Positions 1 to 22,403 are shown, counted from the first letter of the stretch. The stretch is 56,032 nt of DNA from an uncultured Candidatus Saccharibacteria bacterium (GCA_964615735.1 CAZTQU010000001.1:1-56032); one strand, 5' to 3'. The notes: a model not told the origin generated them from the sequence alone. A program made the numbers and translations.

Positions 1-2359
1 GCTTGTCTTTAACAAAGATAACTTTTTGAATTTTCTTTTTACCAAGAAAAGATTTTACCTTGGGAGAGTTTAAAGCTTGAGCCTGGGCGGCTTTTTCCTC
101 AATCCCCGCCGGGGCCTCTAGCTGATCTCTCACTTTGCCGTTGATCTGGACCACTAAAGTAAAACCATCTTCCCTTATCATTTCTTGACGATAATTCGGC
201 CAGGAAGTTTGGAAAATAGATTGGAATTTTTCCCCGGCCCGAAAAGACTGGTAAAGCTCTTCCGCTAAATGAGGGGTAAAAGGAGCTAAAAGCTGTAAAA
301 ACTGAAGATAGTCTTTTTTGGGAATTTGCTTTTCTTCCTCCCAAGCCCGGAGCAAAATCATCAAGGCACTTAAAGCGGTATTAAAGTGAAAACGCTCAAT
401 GTCTTCCCCCATTTTTTTAATCGCTTGCTGGAGCTGTTTCTGATTCCCTAAAGAAAGTTCTCCGGCTGGCTGGACTTTTTCCTTCAACCGCCAGACTCTT
501 CTCAGAAAACGTACCATCCCCTGAAGTCCGGATAATTTCCAGGTTCCTCCTTCGCTAAAGGGACCAGTAAAACAGAGATAGCTCCGGATGGCATCCGCCC
601 CGTATTTTTCCACCAAGTCATCCGGATCTACTACGTTTCCCCGAGACTTGGACATCTTGGAACCATCCGGCCCAAGAATGACTCCTTGGTGGCGTAGTTT
701 CAAAAAAGGCTCTAGAAAATCAACCAACCCTAAATCTCTCATCGCTTTAGTAAAGAAGCGGGCGTAAAGAAGATGAAGAATCGAATGCTCCACTCCGCCA
801 ATATAGATATCCACCGGCAGCCAAGCTTTTATCTTTTCCGCCTCGGCTATTTTTTCTTCATTTTGCGAATCAACATAGCGGAGATAATACCAAGAAGAAT
901 CGACAAAAGTATCCAAAGTGTCTGTTTCCCGCTTCGCTGGGCCGCCGCAGCGGGGACAAGTCGTTGACTGAAATTCTGGGGAGCGGGCCAAGGAGGGGAG
1001 AAGAACGGGGAGATCCTTCTCCGGAACCGGCTGCCAACCGCAGTCGGGGCAATGAATCATCGGAATGGGCGCTCCCCAGTAACGTTGGCGGGAAACACTC
1101 CAATCTTTCAGTTTGTAATGGACAGCCGCTTTGGCCTTTCCTTCCTTAACCAGCCAGTCTTGAATTTCTAAACGCGCTTTTTCTGACGGCTGACCGTCAA
1201 ATGGCCCGGAGTTTTTCATCACTCCTTCTCCTTCATAGGTTCCCAGACCCGACTCGCCGGCCGGCCGCTTAACCACTTCTTTTAACGGCAGATGAAAGAG
1301 TTGGGCAAACTCAAAGTCCCTTTGGTCATGAGCCGGAACAGCCATAATTATTCCCGTTCCGTAATTCATCAAAACATAATCGGCCACAAAAACAGGAATT
1401 TCCTCTTGATTAGCGGGATTGACGGCCGAAATTCCTTCCAGTCTTAAGCCCGTCTTTTTCTCCTTCTGGCCTGCTCTTTCGAAAACATTGGCCTGGGCGG
1501 CCTTTTCTAAATACCGTTCTACCCCCGGCCAATTTTTAATCGCCGACTTGAGAGTTTCCAGTTGGGGGTGTTCCGGAGAAATAACGAGATAAGTCACCCC
1601 GAAAATGGTATCCGCTCGGGTAGTAAAAACCGCTAAAGACGATGGCTGGCCCACCAAAGGAAAGGCAATCTCTGCTCCCTCGGATTTCCCAATCCAATTC
1701 CGCTGCATTGTCTTAGTTCTCTCCGGCCAGTCAAGAGAGTCTAAACCCTTTAAAAGCTCTTCCGCATAATCAGTAATTTTAAAAAGCCAGTGATCCACCT
1801 GCTTTGGGGCAACCGAAGAACCGCATCTTTCACATTTTCCCTCAACCACTTGTTCATTGGCCAGAATTGTCTGGCAGGAAGGGCACCAGTTAACCCGTCT
1901 TTTTGCCCGGTAAACCAAACCCTGCCGGTAAAACTGGAGAAACAACCACTGCGTCCAGCGATAATAATCAGGATGAGAAGTAATAACTTCCCGGGACCAA
2001 TCATAAATTGTCCCGATGCTCTTAATCTGCCCTTCCATCCTCTCAATGTTCTTTTCCGTCCAATCCCGAGGATTAATCTGATTTTTGATGGCTGCATTTT
2101 CGGCCGGCAAACCAAAACTATCAAAGCCGATGGGAGAAAGGACATTAAAACCCTTCAGCAACCGGTAGCGGGCATAAACATCGGCCCCAGAATAATTATA
2201 CCAATGGCCTAAGTGAAGATTCCCCGAGGTATAGGGAAACATGACGAGGTGATAAAAATTCTTTTTTCCCTTCACCTTCTCGACCGGCTGGTAGAGTTTT
2301 TTCTCCTCCCAAACCTTCTGCCATTTTTTCTCTATTTCCTTTGGTTGATAGTCCTTCAT
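1..2359 (-). CDS. leuS: Leucyl-tRNA synthetase, N-terminal ~786 codons; the 3' end runs off the left edge, so it is absent from the ORF track
   Basis: My translation from ATG 2359-2357 reads MKDYQPKEIEKKWQKVWEEKKLYQP...FPYTSGNLHLGHWYNY (HIGH motif). It also has a CPSCQT...CERCG zinc knuckle and an in-frame KMSKSR near 640-658. No complete minus-strand ORF in this frame is listed, so the frame stays open to position 1. Confidence 0.9.
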   Translation of the reverse strand, partial: MKDYQPKEIEKKWQKVWEEKKLYQPVEKVKGKKNFYHLVMFPYTSGNLHLGHWYNYSGADVYARYRLLKGFNVLSPIGFDSFGLPAENAAIKNQINPRDWTEKNIERMEGQIKSIGTIYDWSREVITSHPDYYRWTQWLFLQFYRQGLVYRAKRRVNWCPSCQTILANEQVVEGKCERCGSSVAPKQVDHWLFKITDYAEELLKGLDSLDWPERTKTMQRNWIGKSEGAEIAFPLVGQPSSLAVFTTRADTIFGVTYLVISPEHPQLETLKSAIKNWPGVERYLEKAAQANVFERAGQKEKKTGLRLEGISAVNPANQEEIPVFVADYVLMNYGTGIIMAVPAHDQRDFEFAQLFHLPLKEVVKRPAGESGLGTYEGEGVMKNSGPFDGQPSEKARLEIQDWLVKEGKAKAAVHYKLKDWSVSRQRYWGAPIPMIHCPDCGWQPVPEKDLPVLLPSLARSPEFQSTTCPRCGGPAKRETDTLDTFVDSSWYYLRYVDSQNEEKIAEAEKIKAWLPVDIYIGGVEHSILHLLYARFFTKAMRDLGLVDFLEPFLKLRHQGVILGPDGSKMSKSRGNVVDPDDLVEKYGADAIRSYLCFTGPFSEGGTWKLSGLQGMVRFLRRVWRLKEKVQPAGELSLGNQKQLQQAIKKMGEDIERFHFNTALSALMILLRAWEEEKQIPKKDYLQFLQLLAPFTPHLAEELYQSFRAGEKFQSIFQTSWPNYRQEMIREDGFTLVVQINGKVRDQLEAPAGIEEKAAQAQALNSPKVKSFLGKKKIQKVIFVKDK

Positions 2360-2696: not shown

Positions 2697-3538
2697 TCCT
2701 CAAGGGAAAACAAGCGCTGAGCGTTTTCCGTGGTTGCCTGGGCCACTTTTTCCCAGCTTATTTCTCTCAAATCAGCAATTTTTTGAACAATAAATTTCAA
2801 ATTGAGAGGGTTGTTTCTCTCTCCCTTTTTCTGAGGCGGAGGGAGATAGGGACAATCTGTCTCCGCTAAAATCCTCTCCAAGGGAATCTTAGAGATAACT
2901 TCATCTAAATCCACTTTAAAGATAATGCCGTTCAGGCCAAGATAAAACCCTTGCTCCAAAAAGAATCGGGCTTCTTCCCACTGGCCGGTAAAACAATGAA
3001 TTACTCCTGAAAAGTTTTTTTCTTTTCTTTCTTGGAAGAAAGCAATAAGTTCAGGAAAAGCGTCTCGGCAATGGATAATCACCGGCCGCTGAACCTTTTC
3101 GGCGAAAGCGAATTGAGTTTCCAGGACCTTTTTCTGCCTTTCCCGGACAGCGGCCGCTTTTTCTTCTTCCGAAGGAAGATACCCATAGTCTAAACCAATC
3201 TCGCCGATGGCCACTATTCGGGAAGAAGATTGGATGAGCGAGAGATACTTTTCTGGATCAAAAATCTCCGCCGGAACAGAGACTCCCTCCGGCTCCTCCG
3301 TTTCCCAGCGGTCTCCCTCCGTTTCTTCCAAGTGGAGAGGGTGCAAGCCAACCGTAGCCCAAAGCCCCTCCGAAAATTGCTGGGCTAAATCAACAGCTTT
3401 AACCGAAGTTTGGTAATTAGTCCCGACATTGATGACCCCTATCTTTTCTCCCAAACACCGCTCAATAATCTCTTCCCGGTCCTTTTTAAAAGCGGCCAGA
3501 TTCAAATGAGCGTGAGTGTCAATTAAGGAAAACTTCAT
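2693..3538 (-). CDS. tatD: TatD-family metal-dependent hydrolase/DNase
   Basis: The N-terminus MKFSLIDTHAHLNL has the HxH motif, and the 281-aa TIM-barrel hydrolase pattern includes IGEIGLDY and IHCR. Confidence 0.85.
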   Translation of the reverse strand: MKFSLIDTHAHLNLAAFKKDREEIIERCLGEKIGVINVGTNYQTSVKAVDLAQQFSEGLWATVGLHPLHLEETEGDRWETEEPEGVSVPAEIFDPEKYLSLIQSSSRIVAIGEIGLDYGYLPSEEEKAAAVRERQKKVLETQFAFAEKVQRPVIIHCRDAFPELIAFFQERKEKNFSGVIHCFTGQWEEARFFLEQGFYLGLNGIIFKVDLDEVISKIPLERILAETDCPYLPPPQKKGERNNPLNLKFIVQKIADLREISWEKVAQATTENAQRLFSLEE

Positions 3539-4971
3539 CAGAGTTTAGGGAACAAAATCGTTTTCTTCTTTTTTCCTGCCAGCTGATCTTTAATTTTCTC
3601 CGCCGTTTCCGGCAAAAGAGGACTTAAAAGTTCTCCTATTTTCCCGAGCACCAAACGGAGATCGTTAATTACTTCCCCGCTGTTTTCTTTCTCTTTCCAG
3701 GGCTCTTCCCGATCAAGATATTGGTCGCAAAAAGCAGTGAGTTCCCAAATAGCTATCAGGGCTTGGCGAAAGTTAAATTTAGCCATCGCCTGATGGTATT
3801 TTTTCTCCTCTTCTTCCACCGCCTCTTCTGCCTCCAAGCTGACAAAGCTAGTTTCTCCTTTTTCCGGCCGGGCCAGGCTGAGAAGGCGGGAAGTTAAATT
3901 ACCCAGCCCATTGGCTAGATCATCCTGATAACGTTCTTGGAAGCGCAACGGAGAAAAATTCCCGTCTTTGTTAAGAGAAACTTCCCGAAGCAGAAAATAG
4001 CGCAGAGCATCCGTTGAATATTTTTTCACCAAATCCTTCGGATTGACAGACAATCCACCGCTTTTCGACATCTTCTGGCTGTTAATCGTCAGGTAACTAT
4101 GAACATAGATGATGTTTGGAAGAGGTAAGCCAGCCGCCATGAGTATTGCCGGCCAATAAACCACGTGAAACTTGAGAATATCCTTCCCAATAAAGTGAAT
4201 TTTCTCACTCTCCTGGTTCCACCAATAGCGGAAACGTTGGTCATCTTGACCGTAGCCAATAGCCGTCAAATAACTGATTAAGGCATCAAACCAACACCAG
4301 ATTTTCTGAGAACTATCTCCGGGAACGTCCAATCCCCAACCATGAGATCTCTCCGCCGATCGAGAAATACACATGTCTTCTACTCCCTCGTCTAAAAGAC
4401 TTAGAGCCTGATTTTTATAAGGAGAGGGAATAATTTTTAATTCATCCTCTTCAATTAGTTTCTTGAGTTGTTGTTTATATTTCGTCAAACGGAAAAAATA
4501 GTTCTTCTCTTCTACTAATTGGGGTTTTGTCTGATGAACCGGGCAACAACCATCAACTAATTCTTCTTTCTTAAGAAAAGTTTCGCAGCCTAGACAGTAA
4601 AAGCCCCGATATTTCTTCTGATAGATATCCGCCTTGATCTTCTTCCAAAACTTCTTAACCGCCACTTCATTCTCCGGCTGTGAAGTGCGGACAAAATAAT
4701 CAAAAGAAAGATGAAGCGTCTTCTTCAGCTCTTGGAACTCTTGACTTTTCGCCTCCGAAAATTGAGAAAGAGGCTTCTTTTCCTTTTCCGCCGCTTGAAC
4801 AATTTTTAATCCGTTTTCGTCTGTCCCGGTTACAAAAAAAACTTCTTTTCCTTGAACTTTTTGATAACGAGCCCAAGTATCCGCTTGAATCTTTTCCAGC
4901 GCATGCCCTAAATGAGGAGCAGCATTAACATAATCAATAGCTGTTGAAAGATAATATCTATTTTTTCCCAT
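3538..4971 (-). CDS. metG: Methionyl-tRNA synthetase (short form, no C-terminal tRNA-binding domain)
   Basis: AAPHLGHALEKI (HIGH), a CLGCE...CCPVH zinc knuckle, and QKMSKSGG (KMSKS). Confidence 0.95.
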   Translation of the reverse strand: MGKNRYYLSTAIDYVNAAPHLGHALEKIQADTWARYQKVQGKEVFFVTGTDENGLKIVQAAEKEKKPLSQFSEAKSQEFQELKKTLHLSFDYFVRTSQPENEVAVKKFWKKIKADIYQKKYRGFYCLGCETFLKKEELVDGCCPVHQTKPQLVEEKNYFFRLTKYKQQLKKLIEEDELKIIPSPYKNQALSLLDEGVEDMCISRSAERSHGWGLDVPGDSSQKIWCWFDALISYLTAIGYGQDDQRFRYWWNQESEKIHFIGKDILKFHVVYWPAILMAAGLPLPNIIYVHSYLTINSQKMSKSGGLSVNPKDLVKKYSTDALRYFLLREVSLNKDGNFSPLRFQERYQDDLANGLGNLTSRLLSLARPEKGETSFVSLEAEEAVEEEEKKYHQAMAKFNFRQALIAIWELTAFCDQYLDREEPWKEKENSGEVINDLRLVLGKIGELLSPLLPETAEKIKDQLAGKKKKTILFPKL

Positions 4972-8000: not shown

Positions 8001-9314
8001 TTAATCAAGCCCAGCTAGCAGTTTCGGCAGCTGGGTCACGGGTACCCGAATCTGTTTCATCGTCTCTCGGTCTCGACAGGTAACGGTTTCGTCTTCCAAG
8101 GTTTGGAAATCAACTGTTATTGCTAAAGGAGTCCCGATTTCATCCTGGCGGCGGTAACGCCGGCCGATAGAACCCCCTTCATCGTAAACAACAGAGAAAA
8201 AAGGGAGCAGTGATTGAAAAATTTCCTGGGCTTTCTTCTTCAATTTTTCTTCCCGACCTAAATGGGGGAAAATAGCCGCCTGAAAAGGAGCTAAGCGGGG
8301 AGATAAATGGAGAATGACTTCTTTTTCCTGCCGGGAAGCCTTCCCTCGTCCGCCTTCAATTTCCTCATAGGCATCTATGAAAAAGGCCAAAAAGGTTCTT
8401 TCCAGCCCGGCGGAAATTTCTACCACCTGGGGAATAAATTCCTCTTGCGTCACCGGGTGGCGATAAGACAGTTTCTCCCGGCTGTGTTCCATGTGATTCC
8501 GAAGATCATAATCTCCTCGATAATGAATGCCCTCAATCTCTTGCCAGCCAAAGGGAAAATGATATTCAATATCCACTGCCTTCTTAGCGTAATGGGCTAA
8601 TTCCTTAGTCGGTGTCTCCCGACATCTAATATTCTCCGACTTTATCCCCAAGCGCTTATACCAAGCCAGTCTTTCTTCTTTCCAATAGTCAAACCATTTT
8701 TCCGCTTCTTTCTCCCGGCAGAACCACTCCATTTCCATCTGTTCAAATTCCCGAGTGCGAAAGATAAAATTCTTCGGATTAATCTCGTTCCGAAAAGCTT
8801 TCCCCAGCTGGGCAATGCCGAAGGGAAGAGTCATTCTTCTCGACTGAACAACATTACGAAAATTCAAGAAAATTCCCTGACAGGTTTCGGGTCGCAGATA
8901 GACGGCGGCCTGCTCATTTTCCACCGGACCAAGAAAACTTTTCATCATCAAATGGAAGGTACGGGGAGAAGTTAATTCTCCTCCGCAAAGAGGACAGCCG
9001 TCTTTTTTCACTTCTTCTTCCTTAAAGCGATGATGGCATTTTTTACATTCCACTAACTGATCGGAAAAATGGCTTAAATGCCCGGAGGCTTCCCAGACCC
9101 GGGGATGAATTACGACCGGCGTATTAATTTCTACTACGGCTGGCTGGGAAGAAATAACTGCCTTCCTCCACTCGGCCCTAATATTATTCTCCACCGGAGC
9201 ACCCAGCGGACCAAAGTCATAACCGGCATTAAATCCCCCATAAATTTCCGAATTGGGAAAAATAAATCCCCTTCTCTTGGCCAAAGAAATAATTTTTTCC
9301 ATTAAATCTTCCAT
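8001..9314 (-). CDS. glyQS: Glycyl-tRNA synthetase (dimeric class II type)
   Basis: N-terminal RRGFIFPNSEIYGG...YDFGPLG, class II motifs, and a Cys cluster CKKCHHRF...CPLCGG. Confidence 0.9.
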   Translation of the reverse strand: MEDLMEKIISLAKRRGFIFPNSEIYGGFNAGYDFGPLGAPVENNIRAEWRKAVISSQPAVVEINTPVVIHPRVWEASGHLSHFSDQLVECKKCHHRFKEEEVKKDGCPLCGGELTSPRTFHLMMKSFLGPVENEQAAVYLRPETCQGIFLNFRNVVQSRRMTLPFGIAQLGKAFRNEINPKNFIFRTREFEQMEMEWFCREKEAEKWFDYWKEERLAWYKRLGIKSENIRCRETPTKELAHYAKKAVDIEYHFPFGWQEIEGIHYRGDYDLRNHMEHSREKLSYRHPVTQEEFIPQVVEISAGLERTFLAFFIDAYEEIEGGRGKASRQEKEVILHLSPRLAPFQAAIFPHLGREEKLKKKAQEIFQSLLPFFSVVYDEGGSIGRRYRRQDEIGTPLAITVDFQTLEDETVTCRDRETMKQIRVPVTQLPKLLAGLD

Positions 9315-10998: not shown

Positions 10999-11718
10999 TT
11001 ATAACGCAAAATTGGGAGCTTCACCATCTCTCCCCAAAGGGAGAAAATGGAGATAAAGCTGAGAAATTTCTTTTAAATTCTTTTCCTCGGCTGGAGAAAT
11101 CAGCTGCTGGTAAAAAGCTTCTTTTTCCTCCTGGAGAATAATCCGCAACAAAGACCGGGTCGAGGAGTCAACGAGGCGGGCGTCTTTCGGCGGCTCTTCT
11201 TGATCTGAAAACATCCCTTCGACGGGGGAAACAAAGATCCTGGGAGCAGAAGAAGAGAAAAGAATCTCCGGTTGATAGCCTAGGGTTTTAAAAAGCTGCC
11301 AAAGAAAATAGTAATAAGGGCGCTGAAAGCATTTCTCTGCTCGTCCCAAATCTTCCCAGCTTTCCTTGAGAAGGAAGAAGACCTCCTCTTCTTGAGCCGC
11401 TAGAGGAAGAGCAAAATCCACTAAGCGGCTTAGCCAGCTGGCAACCCGAAATTTCCGCCAGTCTTGGCGCAAAGCCGAAAAATCGTTGACTAAATCAACA
11501 TCGGTTAAGGTATTTCTTACCGCGGTGACAATAAAAGTCACCCGGGTGAAATAAAAGAGACCAATTCCTCTCCGCAGTTTGGAAAGGGTTTTTCTTTCCC
11601 CCTTGGCTAAGAGATTAAGCTTTCCCTGTTGCCGAGTCAAAACAGTGAAAATCCGGTCGGCTTCTCCCTTTTCTGTCTGAGATAAAACCAGGGCTTCATC
11701 TGCTTCCTTGACCCACAT
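10999..11718 (-). CDS. recO: DNA repair protein RecO
   Basis: The N-terminal OB-fold pattern ALVLSQTEKGEADRIFTVLTRQQGKLNLLAKGERK fits RecO. The start overlaps the ileS stop (TAATG). Confidence 0.75.
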   Translation of the reverse strand: MWVKEADEALVLSQTEKGEADRIFTVLTRQQGKLNLLAKGERKTLSKLRRGIGLFYFTRVTFIVTAVRNTLTDVDLVNDFSALRQDWRKFRVASWLSRLVDFALPLAAQEEEVFFLLKESWEDLGRAEKCFQRPYYYFLWQLFKTLGYQPEILFSSSAPRIFVSPVEGMFSDQEEPPKDARLVDSSTRSLLRIILQEEKEAFYQQLISPAEEKNLKEISQLYLHFLPLGRDGEAPNFAL

Positions 11719-14700
11719 TATTTTTCCTGATCAATGGCCAGCCAGAGAGTGCGACCGCCAATCTTTAATTCTTTCTGGGCAGCGTAAGTTTTCTTTCGGT
11801 CTCCTTTTTCTATTCTCGCCGCTCGGTTCTTTTCCAAGAAAACTGACTGCTGTTGAGAGATGGTATCTTCTAAAACCGACTCGGCCTGATAATAAATAGT
11901 TATTGTTTGGCTGGGCTTCAAATGAAGATCCTTCCGCATTACCTGGAGAGCGTGGCTGATTTCTCTTACCCAGCCTTCCTTTTGCAGAGAAGGAGTAATT
12001 TCTGTTTTTAAGCCCAGGGCAATTTGATTCTCTTGGCAGACAGTCCACCCTTCTTCCGTTTTCACTTCCTCCACCAAATTTACTTCTTTTACATTCAGCT
12101 CCTCTTGAATGAGAGCCAAAAGCTGGCGATCCAGTTGGGACTGGCCAGCGATTCTTAATTCCGCCAAGGGCTGTCTAACTTTTATCCCTTCAACCGCCCG
12201 GAGGCGCAGGCCAAGACTGACAATCATCCTTGTTTTTTTCATCTCCTCCTCCAACTGAGGAGAGATGAATTTCTCTTCCGCCTGGGGATAATCATTCAGG
12301 TGAACAGAAAGAGGATGTTCTCCTTTTTCTTCTTTCACCAAGCCCTGATAGATTCTTTCACTGATAAAGGGAGCAAAAGGAGCCAGCAGCAGGCTGAATC
12401 TTTGAAGAACATAGGCCAAAATTAAGGAGGCTTGTTCTTTCTCTGAAGAAAAGTCACTTTGGAGGCGAATCCGGGAACGGCGAATGTACCAATTAGAAAG
12501 ATCATCCACTAATTCTGCTAAAGCTTGGGCCGCTTCATCTAATTGATAGCTGGCCATTTTCTTTTCCACCCGCTGATTCACTTGGTGGAGACGGGAGACA
12601 ATCCAGCGATCAAGGATATTCTTCAACTCCGGCAAGGCCAGCTTTTGTTCCAGCTTATAGGTTTCGTAAAACTGATAAGAATGCCAAAGAGTAAGAATAA
12701 TCTTTCTCCAGGTCTGCTGGACATTTTCTTCCGAAACCAAATAATTATTGCCCAAAGAAGTGCTAGTGAGAAAGAAAAGCCGAAGAGCATCCGCCCCGTA
12801 CTTTTCAATCAAGGAAGAGGGGTCAGGAAAATTCTTTAGATGTTTGGAAAGTTTCTGCCCGGAAGAACTTAAGACCAAGCCGGGAACAACAACATTTCGA
12901 AAAGCTGGCTGGTCTTTTCCAAGGCCAATCTCTTTTTGGGTTAAGGCGGCGGCTAAAACATTCAAGGTGTAAAACCAGCCCCGGGTTTGGTCAACCGCCT
13001 CACAAATAAAATCAGCCGGGAAATTTTTCTCCGTCCATTCCTTGTTTTCAAAAGGATAATGATTCTGGGCATAGGGCATAGCCCCCGATTCAAACCAACA
13101 ATCAAAAACCGGCTCTATTCTCTTCATTTTTTCCCCTTTCTCGGAAAGGAAGTGCACCTCATCAATAAAAGGGCGGTGAAAGTCCAGTTCTCCTTGATCA
13201 TTATAGGGAAAGATCTTCATCTCCATTGACCGAAGCTCTCCGAGATGAAAAGACAAAGAGGGCCAGGCAGAAATTGCTTCCAGGGAAGTTAATCCCTGAT
13301 TAGCGGCCAAGAGAGCACGTAACGGCCCTTGATGGCTGACGAGGAGAATATTCTTTCCCTGATACTGTTTATCAATTTCTTGGAGAAAATAATAAATCCT
13401 CTTTTTTACTTCGTTCCCGGTTTCCCCTCCCGGAGGAGTTTTTGTCATTCTCTCTAATTTGCTCTGGAAGAAAGAACTGTAAGCAGAAACTGATTTTTCT
13501 TCAAAGACCCCGAATTTTCTTTCTTTTAATTCTTCCCGATAGACGGGTTTCAATCCCAGGGTCCGACCAACCACTTCGGCTGTTTCTTTAGTGCGCTGGA
13601 CCGGAGAGGCAAAAATTAAATCAATCTCATGTTTTTTTAATTCGGGGATAACTTTCTCCAAATCCTTCTTTCCCTGAGAGGTAAGAGAATATTTCCCTTC
13701 GGCCGCACTTAAGATACCAGCTTGATTGGTTTCCGCTTCCGGATGACGAAACAGCCAGTAATGATTAGAACTGAACTTCTGCTCCTTTAATTCTTGACGG
13801 GAGCCGATAACTTTCGTTTCCGAAGGAGAAACCCAAATTGGCAGAGGCGCTCCCCAATAACGGTTGCGGGAAATAGACCAATCCCGCACTTCTTCCAGCC
13901 AGCGGCCGAACCTCCCGTGCTTCAAATAAGCCGGGACCCAACGAATCTTCTCGTTATTGGCAAGAAGATTTTTCCGCAGTTTGGTAACCGCCACATACCA
14001 GCTGTTAAGAGGATAATAGATTAAGCGCTGCCCGCAGCGCCAGCAGAAAGGATAATTATGAGTAACTGTTTCTTTCCGCCAGAGAAAATTTCTCTTTTCC
14101 AAATCTTGAATGACGGCTTGATTCGCCTCCCAGACTTCCTGCCCTTCGCCCGGCAGATTTATTCCTTGCTTAACTCGTCCCTGCTCATCAACTGTTATCT
14201 TCACCGAAAGCTTATTTTTTTCTCCTAAAACCATATCCTCTTCCCCAAAAGCGGGAGCGAGGTGGACGATTCCTGTTCCTTCCGCGACCGAAACCCAGTC
14301 GGCGCCGAGAATTTGATAATCAGCCGCCCGACTTGGCTTCCCCTGATAAAGCGGCTGATATTTCTCCCCAAGTAAATCCCGGCCTTTTAATTCCGCCACT
14401 ACTTTATAATCTTCGTCTTTTAAAATTTCTAATCTTTCTTTGGCCAAAAGGAGAAAGCGGGAGCCAATTTTTACTTTTAAATATTTTCTCTCCGGCTGGA
14501 TAGCTAGGGCAGAATTAGCCGGAATCGTCCAGGGGGTAGTCGTCCAAACCAAGAAAAAAGTAGTTAGATCTTTTTTCAGCGGAAGGAGAAAATAGACAGC
14601 CGTATCTTGGATTTCCCGATAAGCCCCCGGTTGATTTAATTCAAAGTTGGAAAGAGGCGTTCCGCACCGGGGACAATAGGGAGCCACCCGATAATCTTGG

Positions 14701-15197
14701 TAGATTAATCCCTGCTGAAAGAGCTGTTTAAAAACCCACCAGACCGTTTCCATGTAAGAGTTTTCCAGAGTAGCATAATAGTTTTTATAATCTGCCCACC
14801 GGCCCAGTCGCTGGAGAACAGCTTCAAAAACATCCCGGTCTTGAAAAACAATTTCCCGGCAAGCTTGGTTGAATTTAGCCACCCCCATTTTCTCAATTTC
14901 GGGTTTCACTTTGATTCCCAGCTCATCTTCAGCCAGATTTTCTATTGGTAAACCGTGGCAATCCCAGCCAACCCGGCGGGGAAGATAATAACCCTTCATC
15001 GCCCAGTAACGGAGAACGGTGTCCTTGAGAGCAGAGGGCAGTAAATGTCCATAATGGGGACGGCCGGTGGCAAAGGGCGGACCATCGTAAAAGACGAAAG
15101 GTTTTCGGCCCTCTCTTTGTTCAACGCTTTTCTCAAAAATCTCATTCTTCCGCCAAAAATCTAAAATTTCTTTTTCTGCTTTAGAGATATCTTCCAT
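11718..15197 (-). CDS. ileS: Isoleucyl-tRNA synthetase (type 2) with an internal histidine-phosphatase domain insertion
   Basis: GRPHYGHLL (HIGH), WTTTPWT (editing domain), SRNRYWGAPLPIW, CWFESGAMPYAQ, DQTRGWFYTL and a KMSKS-equivalent QKLSKHL. The insert spans aa ~478-668 and carries RH...R...E...H phosphatase motifs. Confidence 0.95.
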   Translation of the reverse strand: MEDISKAEKEILDFWRKNEIFEKSVEQREGRKPFVFYDGPPFATGRPHYGHLLPSALKDTVLRYWAMKGYYLPRRVGWDCHGLPIENLAEDELGIKVKPEIEKMGVAKFNQACREIVFQDRDVFEAVLQRLGRWADYKNYYATLENSYMETVWWVFKQLFQQGLIYQDYRVAPYCPRCGTPLSNFELNQPGAYREIQDTAVYFLLPLKKDLTTFFLVWTTTPWTIPANSALAIQPERKYLKVKIGSRFLLLAKERLEILKDEDYKVVAELKGRDLLGEKYQPLYQGKPSRAADYQILGADWVSVAEGTGIVHLAPAFGEEDMVLGEKNKLSVKITVDEQGRVKQGINLPGEGQEVWEANQAVIQDLEKRNFLWRKETVTHNYPFCWRCGQRLIYYPLNSWYVAVTKLRKNLLANNEKIRWVPAYLKHGRFGRWLEEVRDWSISRNRYWGAPLPIWVSPSETKVIGSRQELKEQKFSSNHYWLFRHPEAETNQAGILSAAEGKYSLTSQGKKDLEKVIPELKKHEIDLIFASPVQRTKETAEVVGRTLGLKPVYREELKERKFGVFEEKSVSAYSSFFQSKLERMTKTPPGGETGNEVKKRIYYFLQEIDKQYQGKNILLVSHQGPLRALLAANQGLTSLEAISAWPSLSFHLGELRSMEMKIFPYNDQGELDFHRPFIDEVHFLSEKGEKMKRIEPVFDCWFESGAMPYAQNHYPFENKEWTEKNFPADFICEAVDQTRGWFYTLNVLAAALTQKEIGLGKDQPAFRNVVVPGLVLSSSGQKLSKHLKNFPDPSSLIEKYGADALRLFFLTSTSLGNNYLVSEENVQQTWRKIILTLWHSYQFYETYKLEQKLALPELKNILDRWIVSRLHQVNQRVEKKMASYQLDEAAQALAELVDDLSNWYIRRSRIRLQSDFSSEKEQASLILAYVLQRFSLLLAPFAPFISERIYQGLVKEEKGEHPLSVHLNDYPQAEEKFISPQLEEEMKKTRMIVSLGLRLRAVEGIKVRQPLAELRIAGQSQLDRQLLALIQEELNVKEVNLVEEVKTEEGWTVCQENQIALGLKTEITPSLQKEGWVREISHALQVMRKDLHLKPSQTITIYYQAESVLEDTISQQQSVFLEKNRAARIEKGDRKKTYAAQKELKIGGRTLWLAIDQEK

Positions 15198-15203
15198 AAT
15201 TCT

Positions 15204-16925
15204 TTACATCTTTTTGGGAAGAGAGACGCCAAGTAGGGAAAGGCAGTTCTTTAAAACTTGAACCGTCCCGGCTGTTAAAGCCAAACGAAAATCTCTTTTT
15301 TCCCGGGGAGCCCTTAAGATAGGCTGATGTTGATAAAATAAATTAAAAGCTTGTCCTAGCTCAGAAGCAAAATTAGCTACCAGGTTAGGGGAAAAACGAA
15401 GAGCGGCTTCCTGGACAATAACCGAAAACCGGGTTACCAACCGGAGAAGAATTTCCTCTTCCGGAGTCAGCTCTCTAAGAGAAAACTGCCTTTTCCGGCG
15501 ACCGGCTTTTCTTAGAACGCTCTCTCCCCGAACAACCGTATACTGAAGATAGGGGCCGGAGTTCCCTTCTAAGTTGAGAACCTCTTTCCAATTAAAGATT
15601 ATATCCTTTCCTGGATAATGAGACAAATCATAAAACTTCAGGGCTCCCGTTCCTACTTTTTCCGCCACCCTTTCTTTTTCCTTAGCCGTTAGTTGGTGGT
15701 TAACAACCGATTTTTCCATCAGCTCTTTAGCTCTCTCAATCGCTTTCCCTAGAACCTCTTCTAAATAAATCGTTTTTCCTTTCCGAGTAGAAAGTTTTCC
15801 TCCCGACCAGCGAACCAAACCATGGGCAACATGAACCATTTGCTCGCGGCGTCCATAACCTAACAATTCAGCCGCTAAAAAGAGCTGGCGAAAATATAAT
15901 TCCTGTTCTCGGCCAACCTCCCAAATTAATAGCTGGGGATGCCATCTTTCTTGGCGATATTTCGTCGCCGCCAAATCCCGACTAGCATAAGTGGTTGTTC
16001 CGTCAGACTTTTCCAATAGAAGAGGAGTCTTCATCCCGGGCAGATTAATAATCAGAGCTCCTTCACTTCTTTGCGCTAAACCTTTGTCTCTCGCCGTCTG
16101 AATAACAGCAGGAACTTGGGTTCGATAAAAACTTTCCCCTAATTGATTATCAATCTTTACCCCTAGAAGCCGGTAAATTCTTTGGAATTCTTTCTGGCTT
16201 AAACGGGAGCACCTCTTCCAGATAGCCAGGGCTTCTTTATCTCCCTGTTCTAGTTTCCGAAACCATTCTCTTGCCTCTTCAATCAAGGCCGGGTCTTTCT
16301 CCGCTTCCTGATGAAATTTCACGTAAAGTCTCTCCAGTTGATTAAGGTCTAATTGAGAAAAACCTGGTTCCCAACGACGGAGAGCAACAATAATTTTTCC
16401 GAACTGCGTCCCCCAGTCTCCTAAGTGATTAAGGCCGACGCATTTCCAGCCCAGAAACTGATAAAGGTTGTAAATCGCCTGGCCGATAATAGTCGAGCGA
16501 AGATGGCCGATGCCAAAGGGCTTGGCCATATTGGGAGAAGAATATTCAATAACCAGTCTTTTTTTCTCTTTTCTTCGGCCATACTTCCCTTTTTCTCGCA
16601 GAATCCGCCTCAAATTAGCTTCCAAGAAAGCGGGGGAGAGCCAAAAATTAATAAAACCTGGTCCAGCAACTTCAATCTTTGCCAGCCAGGAAGGCTGATC
16701 ACTCTTTAGGTCTTTGACTAAAGTGGAGGCAATCTCTTTTGGGGAACGCCGAAGAGAACGAGCCAAAATCAGAGCAACATTAGAAGCATAATCTCCATGT
16801 CGAAAATTATCGGCAAAAGAAATTTCTCCCGGAAAAGATTTCTCTCTTTCCCCGTTGAAAGTCTTCGTCCTCTCCAGAGAATCAGCCAGGAGTTTTTGAA
16901 TTTCTTCTTTAATCGTCTTCATCAT
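15204..16925 (-). CDS. argS: Arginyl-tRNA synthetase
   Basis: 573 aa with SSPNMAKPFGIGHLRSTIIG and a C-terminal anticodon-binding region ending ...LGVSLPKKM. Confidence 0.95.
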   Translation of the reverse strand: MMKTIKEEIQKLLADSLERTKTFNGEREKSFPGEISFADNFRHGDYASNVALILARSLRRSPKEIASTLVKDLKSDQPSWLAKIEVAGPGFINFWLSPAFLEANLRRILREKGKYGRRKEKKRLVIEYSSPNMAKPFGIGHLRSTIIGQAIYNLYQFLGWKCVGLNHLGDWGTQFGKIIVALRRWEPGFSQLDLNQLERLYVKFHQEAEKDPALIEEAREWFRKLEQGDKEALAIWKRCSRLSQKEFQRIYRLLGVKIDNQLGESFYRTQVPAVIQTARDKGLAQRSEGALIINLPGMKTPLLLEKSDGTTTYASRDLAATKYRQERWHPQLLIWEVGREQELYFRQLFLAAELLGYGRREQMVHVAHGLVRWSGGKLSTRKGKTIYLEEVLGKAIERAKELMEKSVVNHQLTAKEKERVAEKVGTGALKFYDLSHYPGKDIIFNWKEVLNLEGNSGPYLQYTVVRGESVLRKAGRRKRQFSLRELTPEEEILLRLVTRFSVIVQEAALRFSPNLVANFASELGQAFNLFYQHQPILRAPREKRDFRLALTAGTVQVLKNCLSLLGVSLPKKM

Positions 16926-18221: not shown

Positions 18222-18716
18222 ATGGAGGAACAAAAACCATTAGAAATTATCAGGCAATTTGCTGAAAAACTACCTAAGTTTTCAGACGGGAGAATTAATT
18301 ATTCAAATTCCAATATCGCCCCTGTTATAACTATTTTTGTAAAATTCAAAAAGAAAATCCTTCTTTTGAAAAGAAGCACTAAAGTTAGAGCGTATCAAAA
18401 TAAATGGAATACGGTTGCCGGTTACCTAGACGAATTAAAGCCCATTTCTAAAAAAGCTCTCGAGGAAGTTAGAGAAGAATTGGGTATTGATAAAGATAAC
18501 ATTTCTATAATCTATTTTGGAAAATCCTATAAATTCACAGACAGCAAAATAAACAAGACCTGGATTATCTACCCGATCCTGATAGAGTTGAAAACGAAAC
18601 CCGAAATCAAATTAGATTGGGAACACACCGAATATAAATGGATTATGCCGGAAGAATTAAAACATTTTGATACTTTTCCCAAACTTGAAGAAAGCCTGAA
18701 AAGGGTGTTTGAATAA
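18222..18716 (+). CDS. NUDIX hydrolase
   Basis: Nudix box AGYLDELKPISKKALEEVREELGI (GX5EX7REUXEEXGU). Confidence 0.8.
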   Translation: MEEQKPLEIIRQFAEKLPKFSDGRINYSNSNIAPVITIFVKFKKKILLLKRSTKVRAYQNKWNTVAGYLDELKPISKKALEEVREELGIDKDNISIIYFGKSYKFTDSKINKTWIIYPILIELKTKPEIKLDWEHTEYKWIMPEELKHFDTFPKLEESLKRVFE

Positions 18717-20275: not shown

Positions 20276-20692
20276 CTAGCTTGAGCTCAGATATTCCTGA
20301 GCTTCTTTTAATAATAACTGCGTATTTTTAAAGCTCGACTTTTCCCGAGCTTGATGATAAGGAAGCCATTGATAGTCCTGATGTTCAGAAGAAAGCACCA
20401 CTTTTTGAGCTTTTGCTTTTCCTAAAAAGAAGCAGACCCTTTTGGAAATTTTTTCTCCCCGATTTTGGAAAAAGTAGCGAATCCACCTCTGAAATCCGGA
20501 TTGCAGTTCAATCTCTCCTAATCCGCTCTCCTCTTTTGCTTCCCGGAGGGCAGCTTCTGTTAAAGTTTCTCCCACTTGAAGGTGGCCTTTGGAAAAACCC
20601 CAATACCCTGATCCGTCCTGCAGCAAAAGGTAAACGGGCTCTTCCCCCAATCTCCGAAAGATAATAATACCAGCAGATTTTTCAGTTTTCAT
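20276..20692 (-). CDS. NUDIX hydrolase (Ap4A-hydrolase-like size)
   Basis: Nudix box SKGHLQVGETLTEAALREAKEESGL. The gene ends with a TAG stop. Confidence 0.8.
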   Translation of the reverse strand: MKTEKSAGIIIFRRLGEEPVYLLLQDGSGYWGFSKGHLQVGETLTEAALREAKEESGLGEIELQSGFQRWIRYFFQNRGEKISKRVCFFLGKAKAQKVVLSSEHQDYQWLPYHQAREKSSFKNTQLLLKEAQEYLSSS

Positions 20693-22403
20693 TACCCGCC
20701 AGATAAAGAGAAATTTGGAACCAAGTTTTAGTATTGAGAATGTCTTCCTTCTCCGCCCAACCTCTTCTTGCCTGAGCCAAACCGAACTCCGCCCAGCCTA
20801 GATCTTGGGGCTGATGAGCTCCGGAGCAAACAGCCATTTTTACTCCCTTTTCTTTGGCTTGACGGATTATCTCATCCGGCAAATCCAAACGAGCGGGCTG
20901 AGAATTAATTTCTAAGAGAACATGGTTTTTCCGAGCCGCCGTAAAAATTTTTTCCCAGTCTAAATCGCTGGGTTCTCTTTCCTGCAGAATTCGGTTGGCA
21001 GGATGAGCTAAGAGGTGGACAAAAGGAAAATGAAGAGCCCGAAGAATTCTTTTTGTCATCTCTAGCCGGGGAAGCTGGAAAAAAGATTGAACACTAATGA
21101 TGACTACTTCCAGCTGCTCTAAAATTTCATCTTCCAAGTTTAGTTTCCCATTCCGGCCAATAATTAATTCTATCCCCTTAAGCAGTTTGACTTCCTTTTC
21201 CTTCCGGTTAAGGCGGTCGATTTCTTCCATCTGCCGCCTAATCTTTTTCTTCAGTGAAGATTGGTCTTTCGCTGACAGGCGATCGGTAATTGCCAAATAG
21301 CGATAGCCGAGCTTTTTAGCGGTCCGAGCCATTTCTCCGAGACCGGCCTTTCCTTCTCCCCAGTCGCTGGCGGTATGGAGATCTCCTTTCAAATCCCGAT
21401 AATTGATAAGTCGGGGCAGCCGCTGCTCTAAAGCAGCTTCAATTTCTCCCTCATTAGTCCTTATCTCCGGCGCTATCCAGTCAAGTCCTAACTGCCGATA
21501 AAATTCTTTTTCCGTCTTCCCAGCTAGACGCTTCTTCCCTCGAAAGACTCCATATTCATTAAGCTTTAATCCTTTCTTTATCGCTAATTGGCGAAGAATA
21601 ATGTTGTGCTGTTTAGAGCCGGTAAAATATTGGAGGGCCGCTCCCCAGGATTCGTTTTTCACAATCCGGAGATCAATATCAAAGCCCGCTTCCAGGCGAA
21701 TCGAAGATTTCGTTAGCCCCTCTCCCCAAACTTTAGCAACTGAAGGAAGAGAAGTAAAAGCTTTCATAACCTTTTTCGGTTGGCGGCTGGCTACTAAAAA
21801 ATCGATGTCTCCAATAGTTTCTTTTTTCCGCCGAATAGAGCCCGCCAGACTAATCTTTTGAACTTCTTTCAAGCTTTTCAGCTTTTTCTCTATCTGATCA
21901 GCCAGAGGTAAAATTTCTCCCAAAAGAAAGCGGCGGTGCTGCCGCCGAAAAATGGCAATTTCCCGAAGAATATTCTCCTCACTTTGAAGGCCGAACCCAG
22001 GTAGGTTTCTAATCTTCTTTTCCTGGGCGGCTTTTTCCAAGTCAGCTAAATTCTTAATTTTTAAAGACTGGTAAAGTCTTTCTACTGTCTTCGGACCAAT
22101 TCCTTCAATCTGCGTTAATTGGTAAATATCAACCGGAAGTTTTTTTCTTAATTCTTCGTAGTATTTAATCCGCCCCGTCTTCAAATATTCCTCAATCTTC
22201 TCGGCTAAGCTTTCCCCCACGCCGGGGATGTTTTCCAATCCCCGCCGTCCTTCCCGCTGATAAATCTTCCGAATACCAATCGAAAAGACTTCTAGGGCGC
22301 CGGCGGCTCGTTGATAAGCCTGCGGTTTAAAAGGCACTTCCTGGATAGTTAAGTAACTGCTGATCTCAGAAAAAATTCTAGCTATCTTCTGACCTTCCCT
22401 CAT
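20682..22403 (-). CDS. polX: Family X DNA polymerase with a C-terminal PHP phosphoesterase domain
   Basis: 573 aa with N-terminal HhH repeats (IPGVGESLAEKI, IEGIGPKT), a nucleotidyltransferase GSIRRKKETIGDIDFLV, and a PHP-like C-terminal half (GDLHTASDWGEG...AITD). Confidence 0.85.
   Translation of the reverse strand: MREGQKIARIFSEISSYLTIQEVPFKPQAYQRAAGALEVFSIGIRKIYQREGRRGLENIPGVGESLAEKIEEYLKTGRIKYYEELRKKLPVDIYQLTQIEGIGPKTVERLYQSLKIKNLADLEKAAQEKKIRNLPGFGLQSEENILREIAIFRRQHRRFLLGEILPLADQIEKKLKSLKEVQKISLAGSIRRKKETIGDIDFLVASRQPKKVMKAFTSLPSVAKVWGEGLTKSSIRLEAGFDIDLRIVKNESWGAALQYFTGSKQHNIILRQLAIKKGLKLNEYGVFRGKKRLAGKTEKEFYRQLGLDWIAPEIRTNEGEIEAALEQRLPRLINYRDLKGDLHTASDWGEGKAGLGEMARTAKKLGYRYLAITDRLSAKDQSSLKKKIRRQMEEIDRLNRKEKEVKLLKGIELIIGRNGKLNLEDEILEQLEVVIISVQSFFQLPRLEMTKRILRALHFPFVHLLAHPANRILQEREPSDLDWEKIFTAARKNHVLLEINSQPARLDLPDEIIRQAKEKGVKMAVCSGAHQPQDLGWAEFGLAQARRGWAEKEDILNTKTWFQISLYLAGNEN

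Follow-up and report, generated by a model that had tools for sequence, protein, structure and literature searches.

Here, we describe an isoleucyl-tRNA synthetase (IleRS) that carries a complete histidine-phosphatase domain within its CP3 subdomain, encoded on a contig of an uncultured Candidatus Saccharibacteria bacterium (GCA_964615735.1, CAZTQU010000001.1:1-56032). The whole stretch of 56,032 nucleotides was analysed and is referred to as the window. In its relatives, the phosphatase is persistently coupled with ileS and valS, by fusion, by adjacency in operons and by multiplication within a synthetase, and fused or split phosphatase-IleRS pairs have been kept in hundreds of relatives from candidate phyla. 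It is very probable that the domain is an active phosphatase that is functionally coupled to IleRS. As for its role, our tentative reading, which we would place a little short of an even chance, is that a PhoE/iPSP1/CobC-like enzyme serves as a dedicated module of class Ia synthetases and removes phosphate or pyrophosphate groups that block charging.

The ileS gene (11718..15197, minus strand) encodes a protein of 1159 amino acids without any break in frame, as had been stated in an earlier note made from the DNA sequence. Its product was recognized as a type-2 IleRS by the TIGR00392 (ileS) model, with 837.7 bits against a cutoff of 621.4 and a match that is split at residue ~474. The N-terminal part (residues 1-473; 13779..15197, minus strand; Pfam tRNA-synt_1 at residues 11-475) comprises the first half of the Rossmann fold, the CP core, the CP1 editing domain, CP2 and the start of CP3, with the HIGH motif in the form PHYGH (residues 47-51, nucleotides 15045-15059) and the editing motif WTTTPWT (residues 218-224). 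The C-terminal part (residues 672-1159; 11721..13184, minus strand; Pfam Anticodon_1 at residues 863-1011 and DUF5915 at 1033-1156) contains the rest of CP3 (DFHRPFIDEV), FDCWFESG, the KMSKS motif in the form KLSKH (residues 782-786, nucleotides 12840-12854), the anticodon-binding domain and the DUF5915 C-terminal domain. The HIGH, KMSKS and CP1 editing motifs are invariant columns in an alignment of 75 relatives, including K782, S784 and K785, and the host enzyme is intact, with its synthetic and editing motifs kept. Known IleRS sequences such as 8c8v and 1ile were matched by phmmer with E-values of 1e-196 to 1e-204. A full-length AlphaFold2 model was obtained with a predicted local distance difference test score (pLDDT) of 92.2 and a predicted template-modelling score (pTM) of 0.85, and the insert region was modelled with the same confidence as the rest of the protein. 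In a Foldseek search this model was matched best by Priestia megaterium IleRS2 (8c8v, TMt 0.84); it also superposes on the IleRS of Thermus thermophilus (1ile, TMt 0.91) and on that of yeast in complex with tRNA (8wnd, TMt 0.82-0.89). Both P. megaterium IleRS2 and T. thermophilus IleRS share the domain order, HIGH and KMSKS with the window protein, whereas the latter adds ~198 residues, a full phosphatase domain, in the middle of CP3 and has lost the CP3 cysteines.

The earlier note had placed about 190 extra residues at approximately 478-668. The nucleotides given for them (13194-13766) translate into exactly these residues, and the insert is indeed present, but its limits turned out to be slightly wider: alignment with insert-less relatives and with human IleRS puts the domain and its linkers at residues 474-671 (13185..13778, minus strand). 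Residue 473 pairs with residue 491 of the human enzyme and residue 672 with residue 498, so that ~198 residues replace ~6. The two conserved blocks on either side, said in that note to be normally a few tens of residues apart, are separated by 24-53 residues in relatives lacking the insert and by 209-240 in those having it (75 relatives in all), with 218 in the window protein. Pfam His_Phos_1 (PF00300) matches residues 481-636 (13290..13757, minus strand) with 114-119 bits against a gathering cutoff of 21.7 (E=9.2e-33 for the full protein and 3.2e-34 for the segment alone), and this match cuts that of tRNA-synt_1 into two halves. The GC content of the insert (0.40-0.43, compared with 0.45-0.49 nearby) is slightly low, still inside the range of the window.

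When the segment was modelled alone with 25 homologues, AlphaFold2 returned a confident structure (pLDDT 96.5, pTM 0.92). The 50 best Foldseek matches of this model in the PDB all belong to the histidine-phosphatase superfamily. The metal-independent phosphoserine phosphatase iPSP1 of H. thermophilus (4ij5/4ij6) was the best of them with a TM score of 0.80 and an identity of 24-25%, followed by the riboflavin-pathway HFP 9mmh, Rv2419c, CobC and PhoE. Searching the PDB sequences with the insert profile also gave 4ij5 as the best match (E=1.3e-31; PhoE, 8e-30). Thus profile, fold and conservation among orthologues all bear out the proposal that a complete histidine-phosphatase domain is inserted in frame in a colinear type-2 IleRS.

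The catalytic residues of the superfamily could be assigned one by one, and every motif quoted in the earlier note (WLFRHPEAETN, ASPVQRTKETAE, FGVFEEKS, PPGGETGNEV and LLVSHQGPLRAL) was found in the protein. R484 and H485 form the RHG-type motif (13743..13748, minus strand), in which H485 (13743-13745, exactly as noted before) is the predicted phospho-acceptor. By conservation, R535 (13593..13595, minus strand; motif S531-x3-R535) is the second phosphate-binding Arg, and H622 (13332..13334, minus strand; VSHQGP) the second catalytic His. Among 59 insert-bearing IleRS sequences, R484, H485, S531, G563, E592, R600 and H622 are present in every one and R535 in 58. Free-standing orthologues, which are discussed below, keep R535 and H622 in 40/40 sequences and R484 and H485 in 38/40, the other two having gaps.

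One assignment had to be revised. The acid/base residue had been taken to be E592, but it is most likely E559 in ELKERKFG (13521..13523, minus strand; L-x-[ED]-x3-G), to judge from conservation and alignment. This position is Glu in 42 and Asp in 17 of the 59 inserts, as well as Glu in 32 and Asp in 8 of the 40 free-standing forms, and it aligns with the rLrEinvG, IIEIDHG or LREIHLG column of iPSP1 and PhoE. We take the column that holds E83 of PhoE (RLREIHLG) and the Glu of LNERHYG in the cofactor-dependent phosphoglycerate mutases (dPGM) to be that of the superfamily proton donor, with the motif L-x-E-x3-G. E592 is invariant, yet it more likely belongs to the structural GE-x7-R motif of the family, which extends to R600 (E592 to R600; 13398..13424, minus strand); both residues are also present in all four outgroup His_Phos proteins. 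On the other hand, the reported replacement of Gly by Pro in the nucleophile motif was confirmed. Position 486 is Gly in 48, Ala in 5, Pro in 4 and Ser in 2 of the 59 inserts, and RHP instead of RHG is a peculiarity of the small clade to which the window protein belongs. The subfamily has markers of its own (N478, Y480, T506, P625, G653 and E654), which are kept in the free proteins; N478/Y480 and G653/E654 lie at the domain termini, i.e., at the ends that join CP3 in the fused form. From these patterns, we infer that the insert is catalytically active, acting through phospho-His485. A pseudo-enzyme was ruled out by the conservation of catalytic residues in inserts, free forms and multi-copy enzymes.

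The fused form is not a product of assembly. An identical protein (P0001) was found on four contigs (JGI and Logan), and its 90% cluster also contains an NCBI member; this recurrence in independent assemblies was used as a proxy for mapping reads over the junctions, and it speaks against the misjoin that had been raised as a possibility. With the same protein on four contigs from separate sources and hundreds of divergent orthologues, a chimeric assembly was ruled out. The closest species-level genome (L001) shows 82-84% identity. PF00300 was found in the same position in about 80 of the 120 best IleRS relatives, at identities as low as 44%, and the source names of insert-bearing relatives include Parcubacteria, Nealsonbacteria, Jorgensenbacteria, Portnoybacteria and Paceibacterota. 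Among 1.84 billion proteins, the insert profile matched 1016 representative clusters at E<=1e-30. A contig scan with a single junction peptide gave 16 loci with thin taxonomic coverage. Three of these (L007, L010 and L011) are third-party annotation records named 'uncultured Gammaproteobacteria' or 'Saccharibacteria' that contain Patescibacteria-type insert-bearing IleRS or related phosphatases, and their labels look unreliable. An intein or other selfish insert was also rejected, as Pfam shows PF00300 only in residues 474-671 with no Hint domain, and the segment folds as one phosphatase domain. No match to PADLOC-DB defence models was obtained for either the insert or a free orthologue (P0124).

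The insertion site is subdomain CP3, which spans residues 473-534 in C. albicans IleRS and 459-526 in the yeast enzyme (PMC7191050, PMC7955072). The CP2-CP3 linker VRDWSISRNRYWG of the window protein (residues 437-449, including R438, R444 and R446; 13851..13889, minus strand) has the same motif as yeast IleRS, in which it corresponds to ARDWNVSRNRYWG at residues 453-465, and CP3 begins directly after it. D439, W440, R444, R446, W448 and G449 are invariant in 75 sequences. In yeast, R454, R460 and R462 are part of the 3'-CCA pocket and equivalent to LeuRS residues touching A73, C74 and A76, and D527 and W529, which come after CP3, line the same pocket (PMC7955072). The equivalents of the latter two in the window protein are D699 and W701 of FDCWFESG. 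As these pocket residues flank CP3, the phosphatase is carried by a loop that emerges from the CCA-pocket wall and runs back into it, ~30 residues away on each side. By homology, then, the insert sits in CP3 beside the pocket, with R444 and R446 on one side and D699 and W701 on the other.

CP3 of T. thermophilus IleRS contains a Cys4 zinc knuckle (PMC7191050). In most relatives, one Cys pair of this knuckle precedes the insert and the other follows it (W-x-C-x2-C ... C-x1-2-C-G-G). The window IleRS has lost all four cysteines, which most relatives keep, with or without the insert: IWVSPSETKV (segment 13779-13850, residues 450-473, minus strand) stands in place of IW.C..C, and FLSEKGEKM (13125-13160, residues ~680-691, minus strand) in place of C.(.)CGG. 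It may be that the phosphatase now stabilizes CP3 in the clade of the window, where the cysteines are gone. This loss, together with the Pro at position 486, would fit a module that is not catalytic at all, either a CP3 stabilizer replacing the lost zinc knuckle or a sensor of a phospho-ligand, or else an artefact such as a chimera or an intein-like insert. However, the catalytic residues are found in 59/59 inserts (R535 in 58/59), including those of relatives that keep the zinc knuckle, and free-standing proteins retain them though they have nothing to stabilize. Recurrence in independent assemblies, absence of a Hint or intein domain, a continuous frame and conserved linkers at both junctions speak against an artefact. 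Such explanations are highly improbable and have already been largely refuted.

The phosphatase was also found as a separate gene. Locus L008 contains smpB, argS, a free phosphatase of 200 amino acids (37% identical to the insert) and, 56 nucleotides further on, an insert-less ileS (TIGR00392, 670 against a cutoff of 621). A search with this phosphatase gave 303 matches at E<=1e-10, which are Patescibacteria proteins of ~190-200 amino acids. Split contexts were examined in L008 and eight looked-up family members (L018-L025), and the order argS - phosphatase - (zero to three genes) - insert-less ileS was observed in 9/9 of them, except that argS is not upstream in L019. With the same exception, the phosphatase starts no more than 23 nucleotides past argS or overlaps it; it usually abuts or overlaps ileS as well. 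The intervening genes are a NUDIX hydrolase gene located directly between phosphatase and ileS (L021:5587-6033), an uncharacterized gene (L024), and a diversity-generating retroelement together with an uncharacterized gene (L022). The IleRS partners belong to three divergent sub-lineages, with the HIGH regions PHYGH, PGIHH and MGVHH, and are 33-55% identical to the window enzyme. One of these lineages is far from the usual motifs, having NPMGVHHAWG at HIGH and EMHKSKG at KMSKS (L008:3648-6488, L019:5603-8494, L023:4576-7482 and L024:5509-8388); it passes the ileS cutoff (670 vs 621), and a free phosphatase is always upstream. Within the IleRS subgroup of the window itself, one insert-less ileS (L025) has a free phosphatase beside it, and for another (L017) no phosphatase was found within 10 kb upstream or 4 kb downstream.

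The free phosphatases are strongly basic, with a net charge of +11 to +17 per 100 amino acids and a pI of 10-10.4. Their charge is similar to that of SmpB and 2-10 times that of the ArgRS, IleRS and RecO proteins encoded on these contigs (+0.4 to +6). The inserts have a median net charge of ~+7 in total, and unrelated outgroup phosphatases ~+1.

Additional copies and another host synthetase were observed among the best 150 matches of the insert profile. Three IleRS proteins (P0259, P0265 and P0267) have two copies in CP3. P0244 has one in CP3 and a second one ahead of the anticodon-binding domain, and P0243 has copies at three sites, i.e., after the second CP3 Cys pair, after MPYASQHYPFAN and in a loop of the anticodon domain. 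In P0311 and P0291, copies are located after MPYASQHYPFAN and in the anticodon-domain loop, and CP3 is empty. One insertion loop of these variants follows MPYA. P0380 is a ValRS (NF004349, 849 bits vs 704) with two copies, one of which is at the homologous CP3 site, and P0241 is a truncated ValRS-like protein with four. His_Phos copies thus occupy at least four different loops of IleRS or ValRS, with one to four copies in each protein. Free tandem di-domain proteins of ~400 amino acids exist too (P0255 and P0304). Nearly all complete copies in multi-insert enzymes keep the R-H / R / E / H set. In one ValRS copy, Ala is aligned with position 559, perhaps owing to misalignment, and truncated copies lack the later positions.

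Neighbour-joining trees, which were distance-based, unbootstrapped and weakly rooted, place the insert as old in the IleRS clade of the window, with insert-less forms nested within this clade and the free-standing clade nested among the inserts. This topology suggests an old insertion that may have been followed by losses and fission. The direction of fusion or fission is not relied on here because of the missing bootstraps and weak rooting.

Several characterized groups were considered for the insert, and its scores stay below their NCBIfam cutoffs. The best model, dPGM_arch (archaeal short dPGM), gave 104 bits against 225, and two other models of this group gave 21.6 against 81.7 (pgm_1) and 52 against 261 (GpmB). 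In dPGM, G-N follows the second catalytic His; H622 and its counterparts are followed by Q-G or G-D instead. The CobC models were also not reached (TIGR03162, 88.9 vs 162.9; PRK15004, 63 vs 250), nor was the PspA model NF045917 (63.7 bits, cutoff 350), although a phosphoserine phosphatase, iPSP1 4ij5, is the best PDB match both by profile and by fold. For SixA (TIGR00249, 32.7 vs 74.5), only the N-terminal third of the insert matches. Because no equivalog cutoff was reached, we regard the insert as a superfamily member that is probably outside every characterized specificity group.

These comparisons bear on an alternative in which the module would be an ordinary enzyme of small-molecule metabolism, either a phosphatase or a mutase (phosphoserine phosphatase, dPGM or a PhoE-like enzyme of broad specificity), that a reduced genome needs, and that is expressed via the argS-ileS operon or inside abundant synthetases without any link to aminoacylation. 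Its nearest solved relatives by profile and fold are metabolic (iPSP1 4ij5, PhoE, CobC, HFP 9mmh and Rv2419c), and so is its best NCBIfam model, the archaeal short dPGM with 104 bits. Copies in several unrelated loops, including the anticodon domain, imply that precise geometry is not required, and some lineages have an ileS without the module nearby. However, none of the dPGM_arch, CobC and PspA models (104/225, 89/163 and 64/350 bits) reaches equivalog level, and the subfamily is met inside IleRS/ValRS or between argS and ileS, the latter in 9/9 contexts and with three divergent IleRS lineages. One to four intact copies per synthetase would be an unusual arrangement for a metabolic housekeeping enzyme, a small-molecule enzyme is not expected to be as extremely basic as the free forms are, and fusion of neighbouring genes does not usually end in an internal domain insertion. 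We consider this explanation unlikely, although it deserves more attention than the other alternatives.

The function of the domain, we infer, concerns the reaction or substrates of the synthetase itself. In the mechanism we propose, the insert would be a phosphomonoesterase working through a phospho-His485 intermediate, and the module would strip phosphate or pyrophosphate that prevents aminoacylation. The likeliest target would be the 2'/3' position of the terminal ribose of tRNA-Ile, e.g., after toxSAS-type pyrophosphorylation or nuclease damage, and an alternative target would be a phospho-Ser in the KLSKH loop. The repaired substrate could then be charged immediately by the synthetase. 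Where fused, the module would act in cis, and in split genomes the highly basic free protein, whose gene lies just upstream of ileS, would take over this task in trans. This de-blocking role is favoured by three observations: the module is tethered at the CCA pocket, the free form has a charge like that of RNA-binding proteins, and the synthetase supplies the tRNA specificity. As precedents, toxSAS enzymes add pyrophosphate to tRNA at its 3'-CCA end (PMC11559606), and HipA and HipT phosphorylate S239 of GltX (KLSKR) and S197 of TrpS (KMSKS), respectively, both targets being synthetases of class I (PMC6581861). Aminoacylation is documented to be shut down by phosphorylation either of the tRNA end or of the KMSKS serine (PMC11559606, PMC6581861). 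The blocking groups could come from toxins, phage-defence effectors or nucleases. Action on a tRNA 3'-phosphate, one of the speculative roles in the earlier note, receives a measure of indirect support from the present results. That the substrate is specifically a phosphate at the tRNA 3' end is a rather doubtful proposal, and the same degree of caution applies to the generalization that class Ia synthetases of Patescibacteria possess their own de-blocking enzyme for the tRNA end or the active site.

Several points weigh against a de-blocking role. The present data fit tRNA and small-molecule substrates alike, and the best matches by sequence and fold are phosphatases of small molecules (phosphoserine, alpha-ribazole phosphate, glucosyl-3-phosphoglycerate and the broad-specificity PhoE). 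The cap over the active site has the ordinary size of that of PhoE. Copies are also present in the anticodon-domain loop, far from the CCA pocket, and the module seems to be dispensable or relocatable because some lineages (L017) do not have it beside ileS. High positive charge is common in AT-rich Patescibacteria proteins and may serve docking instead of RNA binding. Finally, we know of no enzyme of the histidine-phosphatase family that acts on RNA 3' ends.

A fusion seen elsewhere represents a further pairing of a histidine phosphatase with tRNA-end chemistry. In Segatella copri (CAVDPO010000208.1; L012:1576-3527), a protein of 459 amino acids joins an AbiEii nucleotidyltransferase-toxin domain to a C-terminal His_Phos_1 domain (Pfam AbiEii E=6e-32, PADLOC AbiEii E=2e-74, His_Phos_1 E=7e-38), and an AbiEi-like antitoxin gene precedes it. 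The MenT toxins, which are related to AbiEii, modify tRNA acceptor ends (PMC10435456). We gave this fusion little weight as a hint because its phosphatase is only ~29-31% identical to the insert.

If the phospho-Ser were the main target, the module would be a self-protecting protein phosphatase that dephosphorylates the synthetase, for example at Ser784 of KLSKH, and undoes the effect of Ser/Thr kinase toxins like HipA and HipT. PGAM5, Sts-1 and SixA are members of the superfamily that act on phosphoproteins. The module is tethered to the catalytic domain, S784 is invariant in the 75 sequences, and the KLSKR and KMSKS serines of other class I synthetases provide the precedents for it (PMC6581861). 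But none of the Hip-like kinases is known to have IleRS or ValRS as its target, SixA (32.7 bits, cutoff 74.5) is more distant from the insert than PhoE/iPSP1/CobC are, and the strongly basic free-standing forms would be left unexplained. In the locus contexts examined, a HicA toxin was found near L022 and no kinase, although no search was aimed at Hip kinases or toxSAS. Such self-protection appears quite improbable.

Slightly less probable still is that the tethered phosphatase clears products or by-products, hydrolysing pyrophosphate, AMP or terminal-phosphate nucleotides and so pulling adenylate formation forward or recycling nucleotides. CP3 and the loop after MPYA, which are two of the sites of insertion, adjoin parts of the active-site cavity, local capacity would increase with several copies, and CobC-like relatives act on a nucleotide-like 5'-phosphate. 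NUDIX hydrolase genes recur nearby, one of them between phosphatase and ileS in L021. However, all synthetases produce pyrophosphate and AMP, whereas the module was seen only in IleRS and ValRS, and diffusion of small molecules leaves little benefit in tethering. Diadenosine tetraphosphate (Ap4A) and similar compounds are not phosphomonoesters, which makes Ap4A, a substrate suggested in the earlier note, chemically less apt for such an enzyme. Besides, the NUDIX genes are part of a conserved housekeeping block (PolX-NUDIX), which also occurs where the module is absent.

With regard to the genomic surroundings, argS (15204..16925, minus strand; Pfam tRNA-synt_1d, DALR_1 and Arg_tRNA_synt_N) is 6 nucleotides upstream of ileS, and recO (10999..11718, minus strand; Pfam RecO_N and RecO_C) overlaps the ileS stop codon by 1 nucleotide. 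The resulting cluster smpB / argS-ileS-recO appears in the same order in L017-L021 and L025. Four aminoacyl-tRNA synthetase genes are located within 14 kb of the window, all on the minus strand, namely metS (3538-4971), a class II HGTP-type synthetase gene (8001-9314), ileS (11718-15197) and argS (15204-16925). The extra domain is found in ileS only, and genes for an M16 peptidase, an AI-2E transporter and a DUF11 surface protein, as well as recO, lie between them. The window contains two NUDIX hydrolase genes in a conserved neighbourhood (18222-18716, plus strand, and 20276-20692, minus strand), one of which is NUDT2/Ap4A-hydrolase-like and adjoins a PolX-PHP gene (20682-22403). In split-form genomes, a small basic open reading frame (101-142 amino acids, no Pfam match) is conserved between ileS and recO (L018:8537-8842, L019:8498-8926 and L020:8442-8768); it is not present in the window, where ileS and recO overlap. 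Genes of diversity-generating retroelements (bAvd and reverse transcriptase) were observed beside or inside the argS-phosphatase-ileS cluster on three unrelated contigs (L019:313-1819, L022:5618-7055 and L023:197-1171). In addition, a HicA-toxin gene with a small partner open reading frame (L022:2040-2469) is located between smpB and argS, directly upstream of the argS-phosphatase pair.

Synthetases have been noted as preferred hosts of domain insertions, and the 2026 survey of such insertions does not mention a pairing of synthetase and phosphatase (PMC13114784). Our literature search on IleRS with histidine phosphatases and on synthetase insertions in the candidate phyla radiation found no description of this architecture. 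The earlier note knew of no described synthetase with an embedded phosphatase, and this still holds as far as papers are concerned; on the other hand, the architecture is widespread in Patescibacteria, with PF00300 precomputed in public protein sets. The closest curated case is a bacterial IleRS with an extra catalytic domain (NF040702, ileS_w_GNAT), but this domain is a GNAT acetyltransferase, and the window protein scores 281 bits against a cutoff of 1999. Fusion of a CobC/PhoE-like phosphatase to a nucleic-acid enzyme is known from the bifunctional RNase H/acid phosphatase (NF005567, Rv2228c type), which ranks third among the NCBIfam matches of the insert (86 bits, below the cutoff of 326). 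That protein is an end-to-end fusion with RNase HI, in contrast to the internal insertion in a synthetase here. PhoE, iPSP1 and CobC themselves (PF00300 branch 1; 4ij5 and G. stearothermophilus PhoE 1h2e) share the fold (TM 0.71-0.80), the length of ~190-200 amino acids and the same R-H/R/E/H set with the insert. But they are free-standing and metabolic, whereas the insert subfamily has its own markers and no equivalog match, and was found only inside IleRS/ValRS or, encoded between argS and ileS, as a separate protein that is very basic.

The CP1 editing domain offers a parallel, as an autonomous catalytic domain in the Rossmann fold that acts on the synthetase's own substrate. It is universal and hydrolyses mischarged aminoacyl-tRNA esters, whereas the phosphatase module is lineage-specific, chemically unrelated (a phosphomonoesterase) and variable in copy number and site, and can be a separate gene. 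To our knowledge, hydrolytic editing is the only catalytic activity known in bacterial synthetases beyond aminoacylation. The parts, a type-2 IleRS and a PhoE-like phosphatase, are familiar, and what is new is their pairing, its breadth, the fused, split and multiplied forms, and the extension to ValRS. Many such proteins are named only 'class I tRNA ligase family protein' in public databases.

That a conserved and apparently active phosphatase is associated with IleRS and ValRS throughout a major radiation of bacteria implies that the textbook account of tRNA charging, repair or regulation lacks a step, and the fused and split pair provides an unusually clean experimental handle on it. If a metabolite is the substrate, the module would be a striking example of how minimal genomes scaffold metabolic enzymes on their translation apparatus. 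If the tRNA end or a phosphorylated KMSKS serine is the substrate, the module would represent a novel means of countering toxSAS or Hip-type toxins. Should the de-blocking role be true, these bacteria would have a combined repair-and-charge machine that confers immunity to phosphate-based poisoning of translation, with a third catalytic activity beside synthesis and editing.

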